Origin: a virus
Virus genome (UHGV): UHGV-1457062
Reading direction: 5' to 3' (one strand)
DNA length: 46,041 bases
Of the stretch, positions 10,306 through 26,507 are shown piece by piece (within the stretch, counting starts at the first letter, position 1; each line of letters begins with the position of its first letter). The notes below the pieces were generated by a model that saw only the letters and a list, made by a program, of their open reading frames with translations, was not told the DNA's origin and made no database searches. The position numbers and the translations under genes were made by a program.

Positions 10306-10962
10306 TTATTTCACTTCTCCGTCATACGTCGGAAGGGTGTCTTTAGTGGTGCTGGCTGTTCCTGCATTGGTTGGCACTTGGCTTTTTACCTGTCCGCCTG
10401 TGCTCTTAGGTGATGCGGTCTTTACAGCAATAGCGTTAGTAGTTGCATAACTCACTAATCTTATCTGTTCGAACTGCAAATCAAACTGTAAAGCTGATTC
10501 TGTTTTATATTCGTAGTCAATGCCTGTCAGAATCATATTATCAAACGTCTTATGCTCTGTGCTTACAATAATAGGCTGTCTGGCATTCATTATTTCATCA
10601 AGATAAGCAATAGCCTGTGAACACCTGTTACCGTTCACCCCTGCACTTGATAGCATATCACCACGTAATGCTAATGGTGTTTCTGTAATAATGCCTGAAA
10701 GCATAAGTTTATTATTCTTGATCCTGACATTATCAGATACATCATTACCATCCTGCACAGGATACGATGTAACATCGGCAGAACGTGAAACCTTAGTTGC
10801 CGGAACAGCGTCAAAAGTAATAGCTTTATAACTGGCTATCGTTGATGCATTCTCGTTATTCAGGTTGCTACATATAATGGCAAATCCGTTATCAGATTTA
10901 ACCTTGCTGTTAGATGTATTAATGTTAGATGTGCTGTTGATCTGACTTTCTTTGATAGCCAT
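10306..10962 (-). CDS. hypothetical protein (218 aa), Ser/Thr/Asn-rich
   Basis: Long ORF last in a co-directional block; no recognised motif. Confidence 0.55.
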   Translation of the reverse strand: MAIKESQINSTSNINTSNSKVKSDNGFAIICSNLNNENASTIASYKAITFDAVPATKVSRSADVTSYPVQDGNDVSDNVRIKNNKLMLSGIITETPLALRGDMLSSAGVNGNRCSQAIAYLDEIMNARQPIIVSTEHKTFDNMILTGIDYEYKTESALQFDLQFEQIRLVSYATTNAIAVKTASPKSTGGQVKSQVPTNAGTASTTKDTLPTYDGEVK

Positions 10963-11035
10963 TTATATTAATCCTTGTGTAATGAGCGGAAAGCAATAAA
11001 TATTGCCCCCGCTTTATTATTAGTTATCGTTAAAC

Positions 11036-12937
11036 TTAGTTAACGCTACTCTGTCCTGACAACGTGCTAAGAATCAGATTCGAACTAAACTGATTGTTGT
11101 TCGCTCTGATCTCAGTGCGGATTAAATCCTGAAAGCCGGGACCGTTAGGGATGACGTTAACAGAGATCATATCACTCGGCACCGTAACCTGTGCATTCAC
11201 GTTAACAGGGGTTGCGTATTGACGTTGTAGGCTTACAGTCGGCTGATAGGCTTCTGCTTTACGTGCAACAAGGGTTGATCCGTAGCTGTTAGCATTGCCA
11301 TTAATTAAATCAGTCCACCACCCTGGAACGCCGGACTGTGTTTCCTCACCGCGCACAATACGCCCTACATCTTTCGTATCGAGTCCAGTTGCATAACGAA
11401 TACCTTCATTGATAATCGTTGATGGCGACCATTCCCCATCTGTAACAGCGTCCATAACCTTTTGTGTCTCAGGTCGGTTATCATTCTCACCACGGCTAAG
11501 ATGTTTATTAATCCAGCTTGTGATTTGATTCCCGTAAGAAGTCATAGAGGTCAGTAATATAGCGCCTTGTTTAGCCAAATCCCCGAACGATGCACCAACA
11601 CCATAAGCTGCATTCTGTAAGGCTTTGCTTTCTTCCGGTTTGAGTGCTGGCATGTTGGCTATGCCATCAAAGAAGCCCAAAATAGCCTGATTCGATAGTC
11701 CATCTGTCAGACGGTCAAAGGCTGTAGCTGTCTTGTTAGCTGCGCGATATTGCTCTTTCTGTGCTTCTGTCAGTAGCTGCCCGTTGTTTTCCATATCAAC
11801 CATCGTTTTACGGAACTCTTCCCCATCACGGGAAAACATCTTGAGATAATGGCTGGCATCGTCTGCTAATGGTTCGATCAGGGATATGATGGCTTCTTTA
11901 GTCATTCCTCGGCGTTCACCTTCTCTCACCACGTCTTGCAAGAGTTGCAGCGGTCGCCCCTGGTAGGAAGCTATCTTATCTTTGTTCCATGCAAAGGCAT
12001 TCTGAATATCATTTAATGATCCTTCCCCGCCTCGCCACTCTTTTTTCTTACTATCCCATTCAGCAGTTCGGCTTTGATGACCAATGCGTTCGTTTAAGTC
12101 TTTGATATTATCAGTGGTCTTGTCCGCGCTTGCACTTGATACACCGTTTGCCCTCCCCCAATTAACCATTGCAGCCACCTGATTGCTATCGGCACCTACC
12201 AGATCGCTCATCTTCTGCAATTCCATACGTTCACGGGCTTTTTCCATTCCAGCGGATACAGCCATACTTCCTAAGCCAACGGCAGCGCCGCCGATAATGC
12301 CACCAACACCGCCCATCATTAACGCGCCACCGCCGCTAACACCTTCTTTGTGGAGCTTCTTAGAAGTAACTGGATATACCCCCCCAGCGGCAGCATTACG
12401 ACGCGTAGCAGCGGCTGCGGCTCGTCTTTCTAATGTGATGCGGTCACGGATCAGGGCATTCATCTTCGCTTGCGATATAGCGCCGGATTCATAGAGGCGG
12501 GTTTGTTCCTTAATGTAACGTAGAGCATCGTGATATTTCTTAATATCCATCCCTTCGCCATAGCGGGAATTGTTCTTGATGCCTTGTAACTGGCGATATG
12601 ATGCAAGGCGCTTGATCTCTGCCTTTTCAGCAATTGAGGCTCGTTTAGCCTGTGCTTTAGCGAGGTTTTTAGCTTCCTGTAGCTTCTGTTTAGTGCTGGC
12701 TTTAGATGCCTGTGTCTCAGATTTAACAGCCTGCTTAACATGCTGATCATGCTGGCGCTGAATCTCTTTTCCCAGCCTCTGTAAATCTTTCTGACGTGCT
12801 GCCGCCACTTGCACAGGTTTGATCCCCTGCATCTTCTTTTGTAGCTTATCCACTTCATTCTTAGCTTTCTGTAAGCTCTTGAAATCAGTGGTAAATGTCA
12901 CAACATTACTAATTCGTGAGGCGCTAATTTCTAACAT
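11036..12937 (-). CDS. hypothetical 633-aa protein: basic coiled-coil N-terminus, Gly-zipper hydrophobic segment, large C-terminal domain (tape-measure/pilot-like architecture)
   Basis: Heptad-like K/Q/A-rich N-terminus, GGALMMGGVGGIIGGAAVGLGSMAVSAG segment, no P-loop or catalytic motif recognised. Confidence 0.7.
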   Translation of the reverse strand: MLEISASRISNVVTFTTDFKSLQKAKNEVDKLQKKMQGIKPVQVAAARQKDLQRLGKEIQRQHDQHVKQAVKSETQASKASTKQKLQEAKNLAKAQAKRASIAEKAEIKRLASYRQLQGIKNNSRYGEGMDIKKYHDALRYIKEQTRLYESGAISQAKMNALIRDRITLERRAAAAATRRNAAAGGVYPVTSKKLHKEGVSGGGALMMGGVGGIIGGAAVGLGSMAVSAGMEKARERMELQKMSDLVGADSNQVAAMVNWGRANGVSSASADKTTDNIKDLNERIGHQSRTAEWDSKKKEWRGGEGSLNDIQNAFAWNKDKIASYQGRPLQLLQDVVREGERRGMTKEAIISLIEPLADDASHYLKMFSRDGEEFRKTMVDMENNGQLLTEAQKEQYRAANKTATAFDRLTDGLSNQAILGFFDGIANMPALKPEESKALQNAAYGVGASFGDLAKQGAILLTSMTSYGNQITSWINKHLSRGENDNRPETQKVMDAVTDGEWSPSTIINEGIRYATGLDTKDVGRIVRGEETQSGVPGWWTDLINGNANSYGSTLVARKAEAYQPTVSLQRQYATPVNVNAQVTVPSDMISVNVIPNGPGFQDLIRTEIRANNNQFSSNLILSTLSGQSSVN

Positions 12938-12971
12938 GCTAATTGTTTCCCTGTATTATGATTGTTGTTTG

Positions 12972-13169
12972 TTATTGTTTTTTAGAACAGTAGTATGTAA
13001 TTGCTTCAAAAGTGCTGCACCCAGTCTGAAACACACGCTGCCGCACATTATTTGCATCAATTGAAAGCATTCTGCATAAGGCACTGACATTGATTATTGA
13101 GTCATCGCTAATAGCTGCCAGTTCTTTTACAGACTTAAGAATTAATGCCTGTGAATTTTCTGTGTTCAT
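12972..13169 (-). CDS. hypothetical small protein (65 aa)
   Basis: Short ORF in the gap between the 343-aa and 633-aa genes, same strand. Confidence 0.3.
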   Translation of the reverse strand: MNTENSQALILKSVKELAAISDDSIINVSALCRMLSIDANNVRQRVFQTGCSTFEAITYYCSKKQ

Positions 13170-13322
13170 TGGTTTTCTCTCACATATATATTTTTATTTG
13201 GGTTTGTAGACAGTAGAAAAACAAAAAAGGCAAAGAGATTCGTTACTGTATTTGCGCCTACAGGTTAGGTAATCCCTTTACCCTTATTTTCCAGACGATG
13301 GGAATCGTCTATTAATGCTTTA

Positions 13323-14354
13323 TTACGCAGCAGATCCGAAGATGATAGCTTGCGGAATGTTGTTTACTGGCAGATAAGATGTCTCAGTAACCACAGATGG
13401 GAATTGGAATTCATCCTTGATTAGATATTGGTGATGCAACACGGCATCTTGACCTAACTCAGCATGACGCACACCAACGCCTGTGTGAAGCTGGTAACAC
13501 TGTACCGATTTATCCATTACCGGGACAATTGCGAAACCGTTCTCTCCGATGTGAGCAACAATCTCAGGAAACATTGACACATCAATAACAGTGATCCCAC
13601 CAATCTGGAAAGAGTCATAGGCTGGGTTAGAATCAACCATACGGGTAAACAGGGCCGTAGCACTCGCATCACCTGCATATTTCACCATGTCACTGATCAG
13701 CGGGTTAGATGACAAACCATCAGCAGCAGCGCCAGCAGCAAAGATAATTACACCAGTTCGCTTTGCAGCAAGACCAGACCCCAGCTTTTCACTCTGTAAG
13801 CGCACCGCTTTACGAATAGCAAGGAACGGGTTAACAGTAGTCGATGCAAAGTCGATAGCGGGTACCGTGGTTTTAGCCTGACCGTCGAGGAAGTCGAGAT
13901 CACCTTGTCCGGCATATTCAGATTCAACTTTCAGTCCCAGCAGCGCGGTAATCAGATCCACTTCAACACGGTTTGCGTGTGAACGGTAATGAGCCTCAGA
14001 GAAATCATTAACCGCTACCAGCATAGCATCAGAACGGTTTGGATATTGGCGGCTGTATTGTTCCAGGTCACGAGAAGTAACAGCGTTAATACTGCCGACG
14101 TGTTTCATCTGGAAAAGTTTGTTTGACCATTCCTGACGTTTAGAGGCGTTCCAGTCGCTTTGAGCGTAAGGCGAGGTTTCCCCAGCTACCTGCACAAACT
14201 GATCGATCAGGTCGGTAAGAAGAATGCTGTTTTCTGTATGATATTGCACATCGAACAGATCGAGATTAGTAATCAGGGTATTAAGTGCATTCTCATAAGC
14301 AAAAGGAGTTACTACCGCAGTATTAACGCCAAAATATGTTGATAAATCATTCAT
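13323..14354 (-). CDS. hypothetical protein (343 aa)
   Basis: Long ORF in co-directional block; no nucleotide-binding motif; function unknown (structural role is only a guess). Confidence 0.65.
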   Translation of the reverse strand: MNDLSTYFGVNTAVVTPFAYENALNTLITNLDLFDVQYHTENSILLTDLIDQFVQVAGETSPYAQSDWNASKRQEWSNKLFQMKHVGSINAVTSRDLEQYSRQYPNRSDAMLVAVNDFSEAHYRSHANRVEVDLITALLGLKVESEYAGQGDLDFLDGQAKTTVPAIDFASTTVNPFLAIRKAVRLQSEKLGSGLAAKRTGVIIFAAGAAADGLSSNPLISDMVKYAGDASATALFTRMVDSNPAYDSFQIGGITVIDVSMFPEIVAHIGENGFAIVPVMDKSVQCYQLHTGVGVRHAELGQDAVLHHQYLIKDEFQFPSVVTETSYLPVNNIPQAIIFGSAA

Positions 14355-14368
14355 TATTATTTTCCTTG

Positions 14369-14752
14369 TTAAGTCGTAGGGATCGCAAGTTCTTCATAAC
14401 CAGCAATTACAAAGCCGAGAGATTGCAGTTTTGCAATAACACTTGCCTTTTCCATGCTGTTAAATTCAATCCCATCTTCAGCCAGAATAACGAAAGTAGG
14501 ATGTGCAACCACTACGCTTTCCTGTCCTTCATAAGCCGGTTCAACTACTACGTGAGCAATATCAGATGCAGTTGTTGCTTTGGTGCCATCGGCTTTCAGC
14601 AAAGCCCCGACAATAAGATCGTCAGTGAGAGGTGAAGCCAGTTTGACGAGGCGATCTTGCAGCACTGGATCAGCAGCGTAAGCTACTACCTTACAGCGTG
14701 AACGGGAATTATCCGCATTCACTGCTTTTAATTTTCCATATGGGTTAGCCAT
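14369..14752 (-). CDS. hypothetical protein (127 aa)
   Basis: ORF 15 bp upstream of the 343-aa gene, same strand. Confidence 0.55.
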   Translation of the reverse strand: MANPYGKLKAVNADNSRSRCKVVAYAADPVLQDRLVKLASPLTDDLIVGALLKADGTKATTASDIAHVVVEPAYEGQESVVVAHPTFVILAEDGIEFNSMEKASVIAKLQSLGFVIAGYEELAIPTT

Positions 14753-14756
14753 AAGA

Positions 14757-14954
14757 TTATTTTCCTTTCAGTTGTTTAATTTTAGATTTAAGGGCATCAG
14801 CAAGACTAACCGCATCAGCCGATTTAAATAATTGGGCAGTGGTAGAACGAAGACTTTCGGGAGTAACTCCCAACAGTGCGGCAACCTTAATGAGGTTTTC
14901 ATCACTAACAATCATCGTTTCCCCGTCTTTGCTGATAATCATTTCTTGTTTCAT
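14757..14954 (-). CDS. hypothetical small protein (65 aa), basic C-terminus
   Basis: ORF track 14757-14996; internal ATG at 14954 (MKQEMIISKDG...) has an AGGAA RBS. Confidence 0.45.
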   Translation of the reverse strand: MKQEMIISKDGETMIVSDENLIKVAALLGVTPESLRSTTAQLFKSADAVSLADALKSKIKQLKGK

Positions 14955-15135
14955 AAATAACGTTCCTGTTAGTGCCAGACAAATAAAAAGCCCCAATGCC
15001 GTAAGAGGTTAATTCTGACCAGCAAAGGGGCTTTAACGTGCGGGCAATTACATAATTGATAAGTTAAACTATAAGAGGATTAAACATATCAGCAAATACA
15101 CTTTTTAAATATACTTGATGATATGCTTAAAGGAT

Positions 15136-15948: not shown

Positions 15949-16257
15949 TCATTTAGAGAAAATAGCACTTTTTGCTAAATCATCTACTAATTGCTGAATC
16001 TCTTCACTTGCAGCCTTTAACGTGCTGGCGGTGTCTGTGATGGTTTGAGTGCACATCTTGGCATCGTCCTCAATTAGCTCTAAATCGCTCACCAGAGAGA
16101 TAAAATCGTCAAGGCTTACATTCACCTTCATTAAGCTAATAACGCATTGAGAGAGCGTGTAATCGCATAAATCTGAATAGGCTTGATTTATTCTTGTTTG
16201 TAGTGAGATAGTCAGATCTAAAAGTTGTTCCATTGCATTGCTAATATCTTCTTCCAT
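15949..16257 (-). CDS. hypothetical acidic protein (102 aa), translationally coupled to rep
   Basis: Start ATG overlaps rep stop (TAATG); about 22% Asp+Glu. Confidence 0.55.
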   Translation of the reverse strand: MEEDISNAMEQLLDLTISLQTRINQAYSDLCDYTLSQCVISLMKVNVSLDDFISLVSDLELIEDDAKMCTQTITDTASTLKAASEEIQQLVDDLAKSAIFSK

Positions 16258-16817
16258 TATGCGGCTTCTCCTTGTAATGCATCATTAATCATATTCAATA
16301 CGATGTTAAAAGGTGTCTTGAGCGTCAGCACTTCATCACGATAACGCTCTAATGCTTCGTAGTCTTCTGTTTCTTCGTGCGGTGGTTTCTTCTTATCAAG
16401 GGAAAGAAGCCAAGTAAAAATTTCGGGCCGCTCAGGGAACTCTGATTCCTGTATTTCTTCTTCAACGATGATTTCTGAAACATTCAATATTTCATTAGAT
16501 TCGTTTTCTTTCTCAGAAGGATCAGGTAGTGATGATTCTCCTTTTGGAATATCAAGCACTCGATAAAGGTTAGAGCTTCCTGGTCGTGCATCTTTTATAA
16601 TTAATCCCATTTCGAGCAATTTCTTAACCCTTTCTTCTGCTGCTCTTGGTGTTATGCCAAAAACATCGCCTATCTTAGCGTAAGAGGGAAATGCACGATC
16701 AAACCCTCTCAAATAGCAGTAAAGGTTTTTAGCACTATCTGTAAATTTATGCCCGTTTACTTGGCTTATTTTTAGAATCCACATAGGAACTTTTACAAAT
16801 TGTTCTTCATTAATCAT
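16257..16817 (-). CDS. putative replication initiator (winged-helix Rep-like)
   Basis: ORF track 16257-16841 (GTG); ATG at 16817 with AAGGAGA RBS; HTH-like region ...KIGDVFGITPRAAEERVKKLLEMGLI...; iterons nearby. Confidence 0.5.
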   Translation of the reverse strand: MINEEQFVKVPMWILKISQVNGHKFTDSAKNLYCYLRGFDRAFPSYAKIGDVFGITPRAAEERVKKLLEMGLIIKDARPGSSNLYRVLDIPKGESSLPDPSEKENESNEILNVSEIIVEEEIQESEFPERPEIFTWLLSLDKKKPPHEETEDYEALERYRDEVLTLKTPFNIVLNMINDALQGEAA

Positions 16818-16870: not shown

Positions 16871-17041
16871 TCACTTGCTTTTGTTTGAGAGTGTTTCAGC
16901 CTCTCTTTTCAACATATCAAGAATGTAATCTGTAACAGTGATACGTTTACTTCTGGCTTCTTTAAACAACACCTGAAATACTTCATCAGGAATATGAAAG
17001 CAAGTGCGTGGTTGTCTTTTCTTTTCTGTAGTTTCGCTCAT
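16871..17041 (-). CDS. ribbon-helix-helix (Arc/CopG-like) small regulator, 56 aa
   Basis: Manually translated MSETTEKKRQPRTCFHIPDEVFQVLFKEARSKRITVTDYILDMLKREAETLSNKSK; strong AGAAGGAG RBS; below the ORF-track size cut-off. Confidence 0.45.
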   Translation of the reverse strand: MSETTEKKRQPRTCFHIPDEVFQVLFKEARSKRITVTDYILDMLKREAETLSNKSK

Positions 17042-17062
17042 AGTTTTCTCCTTCTCCTGTTA

Positions 17063-17245
17063 TTATTCTTTCTCTGCTTCTGCCTTACGCAGTTCATCAA
17101 TAATTTTTAGTGCGTCGTCAAAGCATTTTTCACGCTCTGGGTAGCCACGGCGACGGGCTGTATTACGATTCTGGCGAACCTGGTAGCGGGTCATCTCACC
17201 AGCGAGATACGCAGAAACAATGTCATTTGGTGTAAACCATTTCAT
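17063..17245 (-). CDS. hypothetical small basic protein (60 aa)
   Basis: ORF at head of the RHH-rep operon. Confidence 0.4.
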   Translation of the reverse strand: MKWFTPNDIVSAYLAGEMTRYQVRQNRNTARRRGYPEREKCFDDALKIIDELRKAEAEKE

Positions 17246-18240: not shown

Positions 18241-18359
18241 GCCAATAGATTAAGGGATAGTCGAAGACTCCCTAACGGGTATCCCTTAATTATTCTTTAA
18301 AGATAAAAGAATTTATAAAAGATAATTTAATTGTAGTTTGATAGTTGATCTAATAGGTA

Positions 18360-18500
18360 ACAAAATTCTGTAGGGGTGGCTAACAGTTTTCTGTGGGGGT
18401 GTCTAACATAATTCTGTTAGGGTTGGGGTAACAGTTTTCTGTTAGGGTGCATATTTCTTTAAAAGTTAAGGATAACAGAATTCTGTGGGGGTAGTTCACA
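18360..18500. promoter_or_regulatory. iteron array (5 x ~22-bp TTCTGTnGGGGT-type repeats), candidate replication origin
   Basis: aattctgtaggggtggctaac / agttttctgtgggggtgtctaac / aattctgttagggttggggtaac / agttttctgttagggtg / aattctgtgggggtagttcac in tandem. Confidence 0.6.
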
Positions 18501-19010: not shown

Positions 19011-19568
19011 ATGAAAATGGCTAATATTGGATACATTAGGGTATCGACTGTCCAACAAAACACAGACCGTCAATTAGCTGGAGTAACTCTTGATAAAGTC
19101 TTTGAAGATAAAGCGTCAGGCAAGAATACCCAGCGCCCACAGTTTGAGGCAATGATGAACTATGTGCGTGAAGGTGATGTTTTGCATGTTCACAGCATTG
19201 ATCGACTTTGCCGTAATACAGCCGACCTACTGGCAACGGTTGAGCAATTAACAGAGCGCGGCGTGTCTGTGCATTTCCATAAAGAAGACTTTAAGACAGG
19301 GAAGAACTCTCCCGCAGGGAATATGATGCTCACAGTGCTTGCAGCAGTGGCACAAATGGAACGTGAAATGATGCTTGAGCGGCAGCGTGAGGGGATCGCC
19401 GCAGCTAAGGCCGCTGGACGTATAGCAAAACGTGGTAATGGAAAAGCAATTGATCGAGCGGGAATTGTTGCCGCTCTCGCGAATGGTGGATCAATTCGGA
19501 GCGTAGCAAAAGATTTCAGTGTCAGCACACAGACGGTGCAACGTATCAAGAAAGAGCAGGAAGCGTAA
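19011..19568 (+). CDS. serine recombinase (resolvase/invertase family)
   Basis: N-terminal IGYIRVSTVQQNTDRQ catalytic motif, C-terminal HTH; about 185 aa; alternative start at 19017. Confidence 0.85.
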   Translation: MKMANIGYIRVSTVQQNTDRQLAGVTLDKVFEDKASGKNTQRPQFEAMMNYVREGDVLHVHSIDRLCRNTADLLATVEQLTERGVSVHFHKEDFKTGKNSPAGNMMLTVLAAVAQMEREMMLERQREGIAAAKAAGRIAKRGNGKAIDRAGIVAALANGGSIRSVAKDFSVSTQTVQRIKKEQEA

Positions 19569-19908
19569 TGCCTCCTGATATTTGAGAATTGTCGCTGCGT
19601 GGACCTGACGCCGCTGATCTTCGCGTTAAACATTGATCACGTCTGCGCCGATTTCAGAGAAAAAGACAGTAACTGAACTCACTATGAAGGCTAAACGTAT
19701 CTTTACACTTGATGAAAACGTTCAAAAAACAACCTAACCCCAAAATTCAACAAATTGCAACACATTGTTTTTAAAAGAAAATTAAATCTACATCAAATAT
19801 TGGTTGACGTAGATTGAGGTGAATAGTAGACTATTAGGGTAAATTACCACCCTTGTAACATCATTTAATGCATGTTCTAATCTTCCTATCGTAAAACCGG
19901 AGGAAGTT

Positions 19909-20888: not shown

Positions 20889-20936
20889 AATGGTGCCGAT
20901 AATAGGAGTCGAACCTACGACCTTCGCATTACGAAT
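20889..20936 (-). repeat. 46-48-nt copy of thrW tRNA-Thr(CGU) 3' portion (anticodon loop to CCA); P22-type att core, not a complete tRNA
   Basis: Reverse complement reads ATTCGTAATGCGAAGGTCGTAGGTTCGACTCCTATTATCGGCACCA; 5' half of the tRNA absent (sequence diverges at 20937). Confidence 0.7.
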
Positions 20937-21146: not shown

Positions 21147-21332
21147 ATGGAGGCTTGGATGTTAAACTTCATGACTTTGATTACTTGGTTGCATCACGAA
21201 ACTATTGAAGTGCAACTGGCACATGCCAACGGCGGATCTGTGCGCGGTATTTACAACCATGCTCAGTATCTCGATAAGCGCAGGGAGATGATGCAGTGGT
21301 GGGCGGACTGGATTGATGAAAAGGTGGAGTAA
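21147..21332 (+). pseudogene. C-terminal fragment of a P4-type integrase
   Basis: ...VQLAHANGGSVRGIYNHAQYLDKRREMMQWWADWIDEKVE matches the conserved P4-type C-terminus; no upstream catalytic domain. Confidence 0.6.
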
Positions 21333-21464: not shown

Positions 21465-23453
21465 TTACTTTCCAAGTAACTCCTCTATTTTCTCAATACG
21501 CATAGCTAACTCTTTTTGTTTCTCCAACAAACGAGAGTAGTTACGTCGTTGTAATGCAGCCTCGAGAGACAATGCCTCCTCATAACGAATTCCGTATCTT
21601 TCACCAGCTGGTGTATCAAGAACCTTTTTAAATTTTGCAGGGGCAGGTTCAGTATATTCTTCTGTATTTCCACCGCTCGTTTCTCTTGTTTTTTTTACCA
21701 CCTCCCCTATATTTGTCTGCACATCAACGTAAACGTCATCCCATGAGTCATAACATAGCAAGCCAAGCTTAAATCCATCTATTCCATGTGATGAAAAAAC
21801 TTTTTCAACACGCTGCGCAATCAGTCCAAAGTGCCATCTCGCACCATCTTCTCCTTTTATCGCTATTGCGTCATCAAATTTAAACCATGTCCCCCAGTCT
21901 ACTTCTGACCACGCGTCAAGAATATATTCTGGTATTTTTTCTTTGATGGGTTTATGGCGAGAGTCAGATGTATTAATTGACCCGGTACCAAAATACGCTG
22001 TTCTTCCTCTTTTGGAAGCTGTTCCATAATCATAGGTGTTGTCAAGAGATGGTCTAATGCCAGACCCCATGACTATTTCTGTTTTTGAGTTAAGTTGAAT
22101 GATTGAAGAATTAAATCCAATAGTCCCATCACCAGAATCTTCAGAACCACCAGAACAGAAAATCCTTCCATCGTTATCAACATTATTTCCGCTTGAGTGA
22201 AAGTCAATATATGAAACACCGGAATCTGTTGTACTACCAAGTTCAATAGATGAGCCAACAGATGCGATATTCAATTTACTATTTTGTAAAGTAACGTCAC
22301 CTGACATCAATATCATTGATGAGCATTTTGGTATCTCGAATCCTGATGTTATGGATGGCACATCTGTAAATGCAACAAGTATTTTACTATCTCCTGCTAG
22401 GGCGTGCCCCCCATTCATGTTGCCTATGCGAATAGCGTTTTTCCAGCGAACGGTTGAAGTAGAAAGGTTTGATAAGGCAATACCAGTATCTACAGCAGTA
22501 CCTCGAACATCACCACCACCGACAATCTGAATACCTGATCGATACCATACAGATGAACCTACTAACGCGGAAACATTAAACTCACATCCTGTAACGTTAT
22601 AAACTCCAACCGCAGCAGAATCCAGGCGTCCATACATATTTCCGCCAAAATATGCTCCTTTGAATGTACCAGGTGATGATGATATCGTTCCACCATCACC
22701 ATTTTGTGAAACCGCAAGACCAACAACACCAACATAATTTCTATCAGGATTTTCTAAGTTTGTGGCTGCTTCGTGAGTTAAAACAAACTCTCCGGCGTGT
22801 CTGCCGCCTTTTGCTTCTTGATATCCGAAATTATGGTGAACTAAAAACCCGTCAACTTTTGTTCCTGCCGATTGGTCATCAACAGCATTAATTCTGTCAT
22901 CATTAATCATGATATAGTTTATTTTAGCTGTGCTTGCATTAGGAACAGAACCAACAATTGAATCATTAATAATGATACCAATACCGTATGTAAGACCATC
23001 ATTTAAATACTCTGATGTCCTGCCCTGCATTATTGAAAACTTATCATTACCTCTAGATATAACTCCTGCGCCAACTAATCCGGCACCACCATTAATAGAT
23101 AGTTCGGTTCTTAACTGATCAGGATCATACTTCAGAACATTAGGAAAATAGAACTGCTGCGCCCCATAAGCATCATAAACAGCCATAGAATGGCCTTGCA
23201 CAGTTACGAACTTGGCAATCTGTCCGTTATATACCGGATAACCAGCAGCGTTAATGATGATTGGTTGCGAAACAGGAACGTGAGAGCCGTCTTCGTTCTC
23301 CACATAAACATGAATCTGGTTTTCAGGATTTACCGGGTCAGTGTCAATTTTACCGATATAAATTTTGCCATTGGCAACCGCTTTAAAAGAACGCGCCATA
23401 GTGAAGAGTTGCGAAGGCATGCTTACCACAACATTGGCTGTAATGTCTGTCAT
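21465..23453 (-). CDS. tailspike protein: P22 gp9-type head-binding N-terminus, divergent receptor-binding body, C-terminal S74-type intramolecular chaperone domain
   Basis: [43 protein letters not shown]... matches P22 gp9 N-terminus; C-terminus has [12 protein letters not shown] and [14 protein letters not shown] motifs. Confidence 0.85.
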
Positions 23454-23857: not shown

Positions 23858-24079
23858 TTAGTTATCAAAAAGTCCGTACGTTTCTTCTTCTTCAGGTGTA
23901 AGGGGAAGAATCTCTACTCTATCTATAGATACCTTTTCAATGTACCCATGAGGTCTACTTAAAATTAAAGCTCTCTCATGCCACAGAACTCCAAGAATGT
24001 GATACCTTCCAGCATCGCCTTTTACCCTGGCTCGTCCTTTGATTCTTGGCGGCATAATGCCATATTTTTTCTTTGCCAT
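23858..24079 (-). CDS. hypothetical protein (73 aa)
   Basis: ORF immediately downstream of the antirepressor genes. Confidence 0.4.
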   Translation of the reverse strand: MAKKKYGIMPPRIKGRARVKGDAGRYHILGVLWHERALILSRPHGYIEKVSIDRVEILPLTPEEEETYGLFDN

Positions 24080-24804
24080 TATGCAACATTACTCCCATGA
24101 ATCAGGTGTTGTAGTGCTTTAACACCTTCCGCATTGTAGCGGAATGCTTCCACCTGTTTGCTGGAATGCGCAGATTTATCCAGGAAGAACTTACCGTACT
24201 GCTCAGTTTTGAGGTTGTTTGCGTTAGCAATGCGACCAATCTTGTTGGCCGTTACTCCAAGCTGCTCTGCAACCTCCCCTGCTGAGTAGTAATGCTCTTC
24301 TATTGCTGGAAGAGGTATTGCATTAAAACCAACGATCGGGTTGATTATGCTTGCTGCCGCAGTCTGCTTTGCTTCCGGCGCAAGATTTGGCATCAAATCG
24401 AACAGATTGGTAACAGCTTCAACCGTCATTTTCAGTGTTCGCGCTTGACGATACTCAACAAGTCCACTCGCTGATTTACCGCTTTTAATGTGTGCTTCCT
24501 GCATACTTTCAAGTTTGTCTACAAGTGTTCGGCGAACTGCTTTAGATTCTCGAGCAGCAACACGAAGCGCCTGCTTGATAGTCATGGAGATAACATCAAT
24601 GTCAGCCCCGTTTTTCCGACCTACACTTTTTGTGTAGGTCTCGCCCTCCAATTCATCCTCAATTTTCTCGATGAATTTGTTGTTACGTACTGATGGCTCT
24701 CCACATAACTTGCGAGCTTCATTAACCATCATCAGAAGACTTTGGCTGTCAATGGTTTTATCCGTGACAACGGATCCGATGTTTGCTACATTCTTCAAAG
24801 TCAT
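24079..24804 (-). CDS. antirepressor-like protein (Rha/ORF6N-like N-terminus, KilA-C-like C-terminus)
   Basis: ORF 24079-24855 with internal ATG at 24804 and AGGAA RBS; ...SLLMMVNEARKLCGEPSVRNNKFIEKIE... pattern. Confidence 0.55.
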   Translation of the reverse strand: MTLKNVANIGSVVTDKTIDSQSLLMMVNEARKLCGEPSVRNNKFIEKIEDELEGETYTKSVGRKNGADIDVISMTIKQALRVAARESKAVRRTLVDKLESMQEAHIKSGKSASGLVEYRQARTLKMTVEAVTNLFDLMPNLAPEAKQTAAASIINPIVGFNAIPLPAIEEHYYSAGEVAEQLGVTANKIGRIANANNLKTEQYGKFFLDKSAHSSKQVEAFRYNAEGVKALQHLIHGSNVA

Positions 24805-24892
24805 TAGGCATTCCTTATGTGGTAGTAAGGGTGTGACATAGGCCGCCAGCAGCACACTGGCGGTTTTCTTTTTGCGTCGTCCGGCGCACCAA

Positions 24893-25519
24893 TCAATGAA
24901 TCCATTCCTCGCCGCGCAGTTTTGCCAGCATTGGCTGAGCGTTCTTTACGACAAAATTGTTGGTATCAAGATTCTTCATTTCACGAAGAAGTGATTTCTT
25001 GGTTTCTTCTGACATGTAGCGAGTCTCATATGCAATATCGTAAATCCTTCCTGAAAGCTCAGAACCAATTTGCTTCATTCCTGGGTAGATGTGTTTGCAC
25101 ATTTGTTGGCTCTTCTCCATCCACAATTGTAAGTAGCAGAGATTAACCAGTTCTTCGTCAGTAAACTGTTTTGCAATCGGTGAGCATTCTGCCTGCCGAT
25201 CCAAAATATCCAGCACCCAGCGGCGGAACTCTTTTGCTACAGGAGTGCGAGCAAACATCGCGATTAGGTGGGCACCGCGTAGTGAGAAAACTCGCACTTT
25301 TTTGCGATAATTTCCTGAGGTACTCACTTCGAGTACCTGAGTCATTCCGGCGCTAAACTCATCGCTATACTTGTTATAAATCATTGTTACTGCACGACTA
25401 TTTGCGTATTTAAGTGCAGATGCAATATTAGATGATGTGAACCAAACACCATGCATATCACGGGTGGGGACCAACTCAACTCCGTGGAAGTTGTAATCTG
25501 ATTTTGCTACAATATTCAT
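24893..25519 (-). CDS. ant: antirepressor Ant-like (Bro-N domain)
   Basis: FHGVELVPTRDMHGVWFTSSNIASAL... Bro-N signature; ATG at 25519 with AAGGAA RBS; downstream of arc as in P22. Confidence 0.7.
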   Translation of the reverse strand: MNIVAKSDYNFHGVELVPTRDMHGVWFTSSNIASALKYANSRAVTMIYNKYSDEFSAGMTQVLEVSTSGNYRKKVRVFSLRGAHLIAMFARTPVAKEFRRWVLDILDRQAECSPIAKQFTDEELVNLCYLQLWMEKSQQMCKHIYPGMKQIGSELSGRIYDIAYETRYMSEETKKSLLREMKNLDTNNFVVKNAQPMLAKLRGEEWIH

Positions 25520-25592
25520 GTTAGTTTCCTTGCATACGGTTACTGACATAGAGGCCCGGTTTGTGTTCGCGCACTGCCGGGCTTCACTATTT

Positions 25593-25766
25593 TTATTGGA
25601 TGACAACATCGCCCTTTGCCTCAAGTTTCATCAATAACTCCATTCGATAAGCTATCTCTGCCTGAATTGACCTATGGCATCTTTTTGCTGATTCGCGGAT
25701 ATGTGAATCAACCTTTTCTGTAAAACGAACCTGACGCGGCTTGATGGAAGATATCTTTTCAGTCAT
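25593..25766 (-). CDS. arc: Arc-like ribbon-helix-helix repressor (57 aa)
   Basis: Manually translated MTEKISSIKPRQVRFTEKVDSHIRESAKRCHRSIQAEIAYRME...; position upstream of ant matches P22 arc; below ORF-track cut-off. Confidence 0.5.
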   Translation of the reverse strand: MTEKISSIKPRQVRFTEKVDSHIRESAKRCHRSIQAEIAYRMELLMKLEAKGDVVIQ

Positions 25767-25865: not shown

Positions 25866-26507
25866 ATGAATTTTGACGATCAATTCCCATCAAGAGTATC
25901 TCTGGCAAGACAGTCCAGGGGTATGACGCAGGCGCAGTTGTCAAAATTAGCTGGTGTTGTTCAACGTCAAATAGCTGCATACGAGGGTGGTGAAGCTAAA
26001 CCACGGCTTCGGGTATTGCAGGCATTAGCCAACGCATTAGGTACTACGGCTGAGTGGTTAGCTCTAGGTGAAGGTCAGGGTCCGGGAACAAAAAACGTCA
26101 TGCCTGACGTTCTGGTAAAGCAAATACCAATCCTCAAACTAGATGAAGTTATGCATTACCTAAACACAGGTGAACACTCATCGTCTAGATTTCATCCGGC
26201 AATATACAATGTTGGTGACTCTGCATTTGCATTGACTATTGAAGGTGAAGCTATGACTACAAGTTCAGGTATTAGCTTTCCCAGAGGATCGGTTGTCACG
26301 TTCAGCCCTCTAGTAAAAGCTAAAAGCAAAGATTATGTAATAGCATCATTGGATAAAGAGCAAATATTGAGCTTCAAACAGGTTTACATTGGTGAAATAG
26401 AGACAAACCTAGTATCCCTAAACCCAATGTATCCTAATATTCTTGTTAGAAATGAAGATGTTAGTATTTTGGCAACCGCAGTTTACCTTGAAATCCCGTT
26501 GCTTTGA
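25866..26507 (+). CDS. lambda CI-like repressor (XRE HTH + S24 LexA-like domain) with Ser->Ala at the nucleophile position and no Ala-Gly cleavage site
   Basis: C-terminal VGDSAFALTIEGEAMTT...SFKQV...LNPMYPNILV parallels lambda CI ASDSAFWLEVEGNSMTA...FTFKKL...LNPQYPMIP; GEAM in place of GNSM. Confidence 0.8.
   Translation: MNFDDQFPSRVSLARQSRGMTQAQLSKLAGVVQRQIAAYEGGEAKPRLRVLQALANALGTTAEWLALGEGQGPGTKNVMPDVLVKQIPILKLDEVMHYLNTGEHSSSRFHPAIYNVGDSAFALTIEGEAMTTSSGISFPRGSVVTFSPLVKAKSKDYVIASLDKEQILSFKQVYIGEIETNLVSLNPMYPNILVRNEDVSILATAVYLEIPLL

Follow-up and report, generated by a model that had tools for sequence, protein, structure and literature searches.

Introduction

For virulent phages, few satellite systems are known: the elements that resemble phage-inducible chromosomal islands (PLE), the phage-inducible chromosomal minimalist islands (PICMI) and a jumbo-phage island (PMC12772148). 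Here we analyze a small element that is integrated in an Escherichia coli chromosome and is contained in the UHGV virus genome UHGV-1457062. This stretch of 46,041 nucleotides is called the window, and all coordinates are positions in it. The 12-kb element contains a block of genes that is a virion-parts module, with genes for a capsid shell, a capsid cement, a tail tape-measure and a tail-tube initiator protein. We consider it probable that the element is a phage satellite of strictly lytic myoviruses from the Stephanstirmvirinae, which have genomes of about 150 kb. The helpers of the copy in the window are likely to be phapecoctaviruses of the phAPEC8, ESCO13 and Schickermooser types.

PLE re-sizes the coat protein of its helper ICP1 with an external scaffold, as documented by a structure entry (PDB 8g1r). 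Like PLE, which measures 18 kb, the 12-kb element is small and integrated, and both appear to be linked to a large myovirus that is strictly lytic. It also resembles PLE in its small origin-binding initiator and its origin with iterons, and in that different islands carry different modular variants of Rep and origin. The likeness is functional only; no homology to PLE genes, among them TcaP, was seen in the family scans, which did not include a direct comparison with PLE sequences. The hosts here are Enterobacterales and not Vibrio, a tyrosine integrase acts at tRNA genes in place of the large serine integrase of PLE, and the Rep protein is of the HTH_36 type whereas the PLE initiator is of the RepA_N type. 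Unlike PLE, the element furthermore carries capsid, cement, tape-measure and tube-initiator genes of its own.

In SaPIbov5 the Ccm protein is a satellite homolog of the HK97-fold capsid protein of the helper and is reported to alter the size or shape of the capsid (PMC8569155). A diverged capsid homolog of the helper is also encoded here; in contrast to Ccm it is paired with its own gpD-like cement protein, a pairing that is conserved in the examined islands except in a distant Yersinia locus. The helper differs too, being a lytic phage of ten times the size of the satellite, and the capsid identity is only 23%. According to the account in PMC12772148, the phage-inducible chromosomal islands that form capsids (cf-PICIs; PMC10085698; 10.1101/2025.02.11.637232) make their own capsid proteins and obtain the other parts from the helper. 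The element in the window would likewise combine its own capsid proteins with the remaining parts of a helper. In cf-PICIs the genes for head and packaging form a complete set (capsid, protease, portal, connectors and small terminase); these islands are not known to encode parts of the tail, and they take complete tails from temperate phages. The element, in contrast, has shell and cement only for the head, plus tail-core genes, and no ORF (open reading frame) or family match for the genes that define a cf-PICI (portal, prohead protease, connectors, small terminase) was found in the 12.1 kb.

P4 carries the cos site of P2 as a copied helper packaging signal. The element shares with P4 the size of about 11–12 kb, the integration at a tRNA gene, an apparent dependence on a myovirus and a candidate copy of a helper packaging signal. 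It is unlike P4 in that the helper is lytic and has short direct terminal repeats rather than being a cos phage, and in that it encodes a capsid protein instead of an external scaffold. Among the scanned proteins of the module and its neighbors there was no match in Pfam, PHROG or NCBIfam to Sid, Psu, delta, epsilon or the alpha primase-helicase.

The gene block encodes head and tail proteins

An initial annotation had described the block as a co-directional set of orphan genes with no recognizable motifs. The first part of this description is correct: all of the named ORFs were found on the minus strand, they are tightly packed, and 94% of the span of the block is coding. In identical copies in other E. 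coli genomes the ORFs are annotated by RefSeq as intact genes. The capsid gene has a ratio of nonsynonymous to synonymous substitutions (dN/dS) of 0.12, compared with 0.145 for the decoration gene, 0.16 for the tape measure and 0.08 for the tube initiator; the ratio is 0.05 for the small gene upstream of the tape measure (L024 versus L006, two E. coli islands described below) and 0.36 for that upstream of the capsid genes. The tested island genes are hence under purifying selection, and the ORFs of the block are therefore real genes and not chance ORFs.

The second part of the description did not hold. Four of the six proteins belong to known virion families, namely a tube initiator, a tape measure, an HK97-fold capsid protein and a gpD-like decoration protein. 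The label "orphan" is refuted because the homology to well-characterized families is clear, which is the outcome on which the annotation had itself made the label depend. A scan of the module proteins against NCBIfam gave no match.

The 218-aa protein matches the Pfam family Dit_like (PF21821) over profile positions 1–125 of 127 with an E-value of 5e-28 and 98.2 bits (cut-off 24.2), and it is 64% identical to gp103 of phage phAPEC8 (E 3e-90). The matches in the PDB were gp135 of phage phi92 (21vq_N, 1.9e-68), a "tube initiator protein" (9cuy_K, 7e-7) and the tube initiator of Pam3 (0.014). Only a subset of the related islands carries such a gene. Directly upstream of it, as in phAPEC8, lies the gene for the 633-aa protein. 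A basic coiled-coil N-terminus, a Gly-zipper segment and a large C-terminal domain, as in tape-measure proteins, had been predicted for this protein from the letters, and both the architecture and the identity were confirmed. Residues 1–195 have a net charge of +24, and a Gly-rich hydrophobic segment at about 199–232 is followed by the large C-terminal domain. The protein matches phrog_16051 "tail length tape measure" with an E-value of 1e-71; its C-terminal 450 aa are 32% identical to gp104 of phAPEC8, and homology to the phAPEC8 tape measure is seen in its first 68 aa as well (35% identity, 6e-8). The PDB match was gp134 of the solved phi92 baseplate (1e-48).

Between island and phage tape measures both ends are conserved; the basic coiled-coil middle is not. 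The island proteins (compared in the window and in loci L003, L006, L007, L014, L017, L018, L020, L022 and L023) have 600–634 aa versus 662 aa in phAPEC8, i.e. they are 28–62 residues shorter, and this might result in a slightly shorter tail. The 65-aa ORF directly upstream is matched by a homolog in the corresponding place in 9 of the 11 compared loci and additionally in L024. It has no match in Pfam or PHROG and no similarity to gp105 of phAPEC8, and it is possibly a chaperone or regulator of the tape measure.

For the 343-aa protein the evidence comes from its family and from a structural model. When the window copy and 14 homologs, which are 41–83% identical to it, were compared with the Pfam family Phage_cap_E (PF03864), 11 of these 15 family members matched, the best with 2.6e-9. 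The protein also matches phrog_29 "major head protein" (1e-4) and is 23% identical to the capsid (major head) protein of phAPEC8 over 178 aa (7e-4). The top 20 matches that Foldseek found in the PDB with the AlphaFold2 (AF2) model were all phage capsid proteins, followed by encapsulins; they include the capsids of ICP1, PhiTE, Bas63, Sf14 and lambda, with a best value of 1e-8. The check for a capsid fold that had been suggested for the block thus came out in favor of HK97-fold capsid proteins, albeit with a low-confidence model.

The assignment of the 127-aa protein as a decoration protein is settled by the fold search only. Its AF2 model (predicted local distance difference test, pLDDT, 78; predicted template-modeling score, pTM, 0.71) found the decoration chains of the PhiTE, Bas63 and Sf14 capsids with E-values from 1e-5 to 3e-4 and template-modeling scores of up to 0.65, and also SHP of phage 21 (8e-4) and gpD of lambda. 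None of the sequence comparisons was significant, neither BLASTP against the decoration protein of the helper (E 0.04) and hhalign (E 0.087) nor the comparisons with gp123 of phi92 (E 0.98) and phrog_2680 (E 0.068) or phmmer. The gene has the same position and size as the decoration gene of the helper. The family comprises 137 clusters at 90% identity, and all of the source names shown read "hypothetical protein".

A second conserved 65-aa protein is encoded upstream of the capsid genes. It is 58–77% identical in other E. coli islands, ORFs of 73–77 aa occupy its position in the Klebsiella and Cronobacter islands, and it has no family match. About 40 nt upstream of the first gene of the capsid module a hairpin with a T-run is present in L003, L006 and L007; the same structure is weaker and has a long loop in the window (14985–15034). 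An alignment of the upstream regions of the capsid operon across the islands revealed only this hairpin and T-run, and only in some of them. It might insulate the late operon pending a signal from the helper.

The order decoration, capsid, small ORF, tape measure and tube initiator mirrors that in phAPEC8, where the decoration protein (132 aa) and the capsid protein (333 aa) are followed, after further genes, by a 72-aa protein, the tape measure (662 aa) and gp103 (233 aa). The island proteins resemble the virion proteins gp115, gp114, gp104 and gp103 of phAPEC8 and gp123, gp124, gp134 and gp135 of phi92 in families, folds, sizes and order. They differ from them in identity, which is 64% for the tube initiator, 32% for the tape measure and 23% for the capsid, with the decoration protein related at the level of the fold only, and in that the island genes reside in a bacterial chromosome within a 12-kb integrative element.

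Relationship to lytic phages and a shared DNA element

The four structural proteins resemble virion proteins of strictly lytic Stephanstirmvirinae. In the phage collection the tape measure matched 134 records, which are mostly 143–156 kb long and are named as, or resemble, phapecoctaviruses, phi92-type phages and their close relatives. Among the 159 records matched by the tube initiator, 132 are at least 60% identical and are of the same kind; matches below 32% identity come from unrelated phages of about 50 kb. To our knowledge no temperate member of the phAPEC8/phi92 group exists, and the element is therefore unlikely to be a decayed prophage of this group.

Two further ties to these phages do not depend on the structural genes; one of them, described in the next section, is a set of phage proteins with island Rep domains. 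The other is a non-coding element of about 80 nt, which is located immediately 3' of the resolvase gene of the island. It matches about 60 phapecoctavirus-type records with ~81% identity (E 3e-11) and with sharp edges. The phage counterpart lies at ~271–352 and straddles the inner boundary of a 328-bp direct terminal repeat. A terminal repeat of 328 bp has been described for the phapecoctavirus Schickermooser by Korf et al. (PMC6563267), and the records of Schickermooser and WPEC6 have the same 328–329 bp at start and end. The position close to the end of the records was at first not accepted as an argument for a packaging site, since a record may start at an arbitrary point; it was accepted again because the published repeat was found at both ends of the two records. 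The chance that an arbitrary 80-nt match in a 150-kb genome overlaps either of the repeat boundaries is about 0.1%. Furthermore, the divergent E. coli island L006 has the ~80-nt element at the same place, beside its resolvase. The position in the phages suggests that the element may be a copy of the site at which the helper terminase acts.

Both boundaries of the 328-bp repeat (WPEC6 and Schickermooser; L012, L013, L027 and L028) share the motif ...GTT(G/A)|AGCA..TTCT..TA..CGTA, which may be a cutting signal for the terminase. The island keeps the right-hand boundary motif only partly, at 20 of 27 positions. A structured RNA was considered as an explanation for the ~80-nt element and rejected, with fold Z-scores of 0.3–0.9 on both strands of island and phage.

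The resolvase gene and the adjacent element are near-identical between the window (19011–19654) and L006 (L006:2752-3395), with 100% amino-acid identity and a dS of ~0.09; the other genes of the two islands are 28–57% identical. Resolvase and ~80-nt element therefore seem to travel as a module.

Phage proteins with DNA-binding domains of island Rep type

An island stretch of 353 nt, which covers codons 1–104 of the Rep gene and its ribosome-binding site, is 99.2% identical to DNA of the phapecoctavirus Mt1B1_P17. Residues 9–112 of the Rep ORF are 100% identical to the N-terminus of the phage protein gp053 (328 aa), and the second winged helix-turn-helix (wHTH) domain of gp053 is 75% identical to the Rep protein of island L006. 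This protein, its homolog in phage BI-EHEC and inny_184 all consist of two tandem wHTH domains of the island Rep type followed by a GIY-YIG/T5orf172-like domain. The BI-EHEC protein, of the same architecture, shows 93% identity to the Rep protein of the window island. In the phi92-type phage inny the second domain and the nuclease domain are the same, and the first domain is 52% identical to the Rep protein of the Cronobacter island. The first wHTH domain is swapped between the phages that carry the chimeric protein.

The C-terminal domain of the chimeras matches MUG113 (1.6e-4 to 4e-4) and T5orf172 (0.037), and it shares 35–47% identity with proteins of other phages that are annotated as GIY-YIG or homing endonucleases. 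The full-length chimeric gene was found in only six phage records.

A protein of this kind is known from ICP1, where Odn consists of a T5orf172 nuclease with a DNA-binding domain like that of the PLE RepA; it cleaves PLE origins and thereby protects the phage (PMC8263062). The phage chimeras have the same architecture, i.e. a T5orf172/GIY-YIG-type domain joined to a copy of the DNA-binding domain of a satellite initiator. They are unlike Odn in having two satellite-type domains in tandem and in the degree of identity to the satellite domain, which reaches 100% here versus 42% in Odn. Judged by their sequences, they look like dual-specificity anti-satellite nucleases of the Odn type.

The antagonism that is suggested by these proteins is also consistent with a different explanation, namely that the element is a non-transducing interference (defence) island. 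Its divergent "poison" virion proteins would co-assemble with those of the phage, spoil the virions and protect the kin of the cell, and the island itself would stay unpackaged. A putative phage nuclease aimed at the Rep specificity of the island indicates antagonism and not necessarily transduction, and the island proteins are divergent homologs of exactly those parts that nucleate the assembly of head and tail. Blocking virion assembly is, moreover, a known route of defence; Tab is described as targeting tail assembly (PMC10884400). However, everything that a mobile replicon requires (integrase, attachment-site repeats, Rep, iterons and resolvase) is present in the element. From genus to genus it is found in different hosts and at different insertion sites, and the islands swap modules with one another. 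A pure poison does not need a copy of a phage terminal-repeat boundary. Capsid and cement are kept as a co-evolving pair in the examined islands, except for the distant Yersinia locus, and this retention suggests a working shell. In addition, a comparison of the island proteins with the PADLOC defence-system models gave no real match. We therefore regard an island that only interferes as rather unlikely. The two explanations are not exclusive, since known satellites also interfere with their helpers.

An island family in Enterobacterales

The core of the element recurs in at least two further types in E. coli and in Klebsiella, Cronobacter, three Citrobacter, Buttiauxella, Kluyvera, Phytobacter, Scandinavium and Raoultella; a more distant form, in which no cement homolog was detected, is present at a Yersinia locus. 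It spans more than 10 enterobacterial genera. The conserved core consists of the 125–128-aa decoration protein, the ~345-aa capsid protein, a ~65-aa ORF, the 600–634-aa tape measure, an optional tube initiator and the convergent integrase. The insertion sites differ among the islands, and one of them is a tRNA-Gly gene.

The islands are mosaics. In L024 (E. coli, GCA_965296415.1) the capsid module is 79–83% identical to that of the window, and the tail module and the integrase are 91–98% identical to those of L006; capsid and tail modules therefore recombine between islands. A search of 5,426 complete E. coli genomes found at least 80% of the 8.2-kb core of the element in 57, the replication module in 124 and related sequence in 712 of them. 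Some copies of the rep/origin region (e.g. FDAARGOS_1259, 2 HS-C) have an extra ~1 kb, and the cargo varies between copies. In these or in neighboring copies the annotation of Rep reads "LexA family transcriptional regulator" or "transcriptional regulator", and a gene labeled "transporter" is present.

The distribution of the core bears on the possibility that the element is a decayed remnant of a temperate relative of phAPEC8 and phi92 that has not been seen so far, with surviving ORFs that have no current role. Such an origin could be suspected from the tRNA gene, which is an integration hot spot beside other island and prophage debris, and from the presence of phage structural genes together with an integrase. 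Random decay would, however, not yield the same minimal set in the same order in more than 10 genera at different loci. No portal, terminase, sheath or tube gene adjoins the core at any locus examined, and all of the tested genes are under purifying selection. The phage matches come overwhelmingly from lytic phapecoctavirus/phi92-type records of ~143–156 kb, and the 99% DNA identity with a gene of a lytic phage indicates recent contact. Together, these results make a decayed remnant very unlikely.

No description of this family was found in the open-access literature, and a December 2025 overview of satellites names only P4, PICIs, cf-PICIs, PLE and one jumbo-phage island family (PMC12772148).

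Borders, gene content and surroundings of the element

Two direct repeats of 21 bp, which are copies of the 3' end of the tRNA-Thr gene thrW, are 12,098 bp apart and delimit the 12.1-kb element (Table 1). The integrase is intact and convergent with the structural genes, and it has the same position in all of the related islands. After integrase and structural module follow an AT-rich gap of ~950 bp, a leftward early operon (with genes for proteins of 60 aa and 56 aa, the Rep-like wHTH protein of 186 aa and a protein of 102 aa), a non-coding stretch of ~1.8 kb with the iterons, the recombinase and tiny ORFs. The Rep-like protein matches phrog_270 "replication initiation protein" with 1e-8. The genes for the 56-aa and 60-aa proteins are 62–80% identical in Klebsiella, Cronobacter and other E. 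coli islands and have no family match. The related islands each carry an iteron array of their own in the corresponding region.

Table 1. Features of the element in the window and of the related chimeric phage proteins (positions refer to the window unless a locus is given).
Feature	Position	Strand	Basis or remark
Distal attachment-site repeat AATGGTGCCGATAATAGGAGT, copy of the 3' end of tRNA-Thr thrW	8791..8811	.	direct repeat
Tyrosine integrase (DUF6538 + SAM-like + Phage_integrase)	8867..10231	+	PF00589 3e-17, PF20172 4e-9; RefSeq start 8954
Tail-tube initiator (Dit-like), 218 aa	10306..10962	-	Pfam Dit_like, phAPEC8 gp103, PDB matches
Tail tape-measure protein, 633 aa	11036..12937	-	phrog_16051, phAPEC8 gp104, phi92 gp134
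Small conserved protein (65 aa), gene directly upstream of the tape measure	12972..13169	-	conservation
HK97-fold major capsid protein of the lambda gpE family, 343 aa	13323..14354	-	PF03864 family matches, phAPEC8 capsid, Foldseek
Capsid decoration (cement) protein, gpD/SHP-like fold, 127 aa	14369..14752	-	AF2 model and Foldseek
Conserved 65-aa protein upstream of the capsid genes (79 aa from TTG at 14996)	14757..14954	-	conservation
Acidic helical protein, 102 aa	15949..16257	-	only weak family matches, none below E 0.03
Rep-like origin-binding protein, winged HTH (HTH_36), 186 aa from ATG 16817	16257..16817	-	phrog_270, HTH_36
Two small conserved genes (56 aa, 60 aa), head of the leftward operon	16871..17245	-	conservation
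Five ~24-nt iterons with palindrome TAACAGnnTTCTGTTA, presumed replication origin	18355..18493	.	repeat family
Small serine recombinase (resolvase/invertase), 185 aa	19011..19568	+	Pfam Resolvase 1e-38
~80-nt non-coding element common with phapecoctaviruses, candidate packaging-site mimic	19572..19654	.	~81% identity
Attachment-site repeat at the thrW 3' end	20889..20909	.	direct repeat; thrW at the right-hand copy in reference genomes
Chimeric phage protein Mt1B1_P17 gp053	L009:2326-3312
Chimeric phage protein inny_184	L025:1438-2541
Chimeric phage protein of BI-EHEC, unannotated	L026

The gene content is that of a satellite: an integrase, attachment sites, a replication module and an incomplete morphogenesis set. 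Since parts for the head shell and for the tail core are both encoded, one could also think of a self-sufficient minimal producer of particles, i.e. a variant of a gene-transfer agent or tailocin that works without a helper. Neither the ORFs nor the family scans of the 12.1 kb revealed, however, a gene for portal, terminase, protease, sheath, tube, baseplate, fibre or lysis. Self-sufficiency is excluded to the extent that a particle cannot be built or filled from the encoded parts alone, and we judge this alternative to be extremely improbable.

Scans of the island for signals gave few results. Nothing credible was found with Rfam, sigma-70 promoters and terminators were not enriched, and no pattern emerged when the regions upstream of the phAPEC8 late genes and of the island genes were searched for T4-type late promoters (TATAAATA).

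The window comes from the thrW/proA region of an E. coli chromosome, a hot spot for islands next to the gene for the vat autotransporter. It is identical to the IMG/VR contig IMGVR_UViG_3300045988_145383, a metagenome-derived predicted provirus; this call is probably owing to a P22-like prophage (20936–46041), which was inserted later in thrW next to the element and interrupts thrW at about 20936. ARAGORN found no intact tRNA in the window. The prophage includes an ORF for a C-terminal fragment of an integrase (21147–21332), a tailspike (21465–23453), Ant-like genes (24079–25624), a c2-like repressor (25866–26507) and further virion genes. To the left of the element is an older island segment (3084–8638) with the vacuolating autotransporter vat (3084–7214), a regulator of the MarR family (7340–7864) and, on the minus strand, a broken integrase remnant (8321–8638). 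Several elements are therefore stacked at thrW.

Proposed life cycle of the element

Starting from the observed homologies, folds, borders, family conservation, purifying selection, shared DNA element and chimeric phage proteins, we infer a cycle with induction, packaging, transduction and interference in which the element would behave as a satellite of the lytic phages. It would be silent in the chromosome until infection by a helper, upon which it would be excised by its integrase at the attachment-site repeats. Replication would start from the iteron origin with the small wHTH Rep-like protein and the replication enzymes of the phage. The capsid shell and the gpD-like cement protein of the element would build a capsid, or re-size one, so that it suits 12 kb of DNA; the tape measure and, in some islands, the tube initiator would seed tails on baseplates of the helper. 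Portal, protease/scaffold, terminase, sheath, tube, baseplate and fibres would all come from the helper. The ~80-nt copy of the terminal-repeat boundary would allow the helper terminase to recognize the island DNA. Some helpers would counter this with a GIY-YIG/T5orf172-type nuclease that is fused to island Rep DNA-binding domains and cuts the island origins.

The role of the tape measure is the weakest point of the satellite explanation. The protein could serve to make functional tails that are suited to delivery of the satellite, or it could compete with the tape measure of the helper and in this way also lower the yield of the helper.

Several other observations weigh against a satellite. 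We know of no satellite that encodes a tape measure, and hence there is no precedent. Excision, replication, packaging and transfer of the element are deduced from its genes; the IMG/VR matches, the window contig among them, are predicted proviruses and not virion DNA and therefore give no evidence of encapsidation. The window copy of the 343-aa protein has itself no PF03864 match at E≤0.01, the confidence of its AF2 model is low (pLDDT 55.6, pTM 0.58), and at only 23% identity to the capsid protein of the helper the shell would not necessarily fit the portal and scaffold of the helper. An equivalent of the ~80-nt element was sought in the Klebsiella and Cronobacter islands and not found; in the island only one of the two repeat boundaries is copied, and the element could alternatively be an early promoter, an operator or a piece of an origin. 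On the side of the phage, the Pfam matches of the nuclease domain are borderline (21–22.6 bits versus a cut-off of 22.3), and the DNA-binding domain could have been transferred in either direction.

The evidence as a whole still favors the suggestion, made in the initial annotation, of a "minimal virion-hijacking module", and this guess was probably right; for a "membrane-acting effector module", the other option named there, we found no support. In a wider sense, we lean slightly towards the view that the islands are a new and widespread satellite family of Enterobacterales living on lytic Stephanstirmvirinae. It would be the first known to combine its own shell (capsid and cement) with its own tail-core parts (a tape measure, and a tube initiator in some islands) and to obtain portal, terminase, sheath, tube and baseplate from the helper. 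In this view, phages have evolved dual-specificity, Odn-like origin nucleases against it by repeated capture of Rep domains. Islands and phages would then represent a second and independent arms race of the PLE/ICP1 type, located in E. coli and related bacteria.

Implications

What would be new here is a probable satellite family with an unprecedented list of parts, together with an apparent counter-weapon of the phages. If this is true, a satellite family in E. coli, Klebsiella and Enterobacter that depends on phages of the phAPEC8/phi92 type would provide a tractable model in the best-studied host. A tape measure and a tube initiator encoded by a satellite would mean that such parasites can swap parts of the tail core and not heads alone, and the satellite tape measure poses the testable question of what it contributes to the delivery of DNA or to the exclusion of the helper. 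The use of a "borrowed specificity" by nucleases would, furthermore, be a general strategy and not a curiosity of ICP1.

Phapecoctaviruses and phi92-like phages are candidates for phage therapy and are used in cocktails. Given the number of E. coli genomes with sequence related to the replication module, the elements may therefore affect the efficacy of these phages and move DNA between strains; the copy in the window adjoins the vat toxin island.

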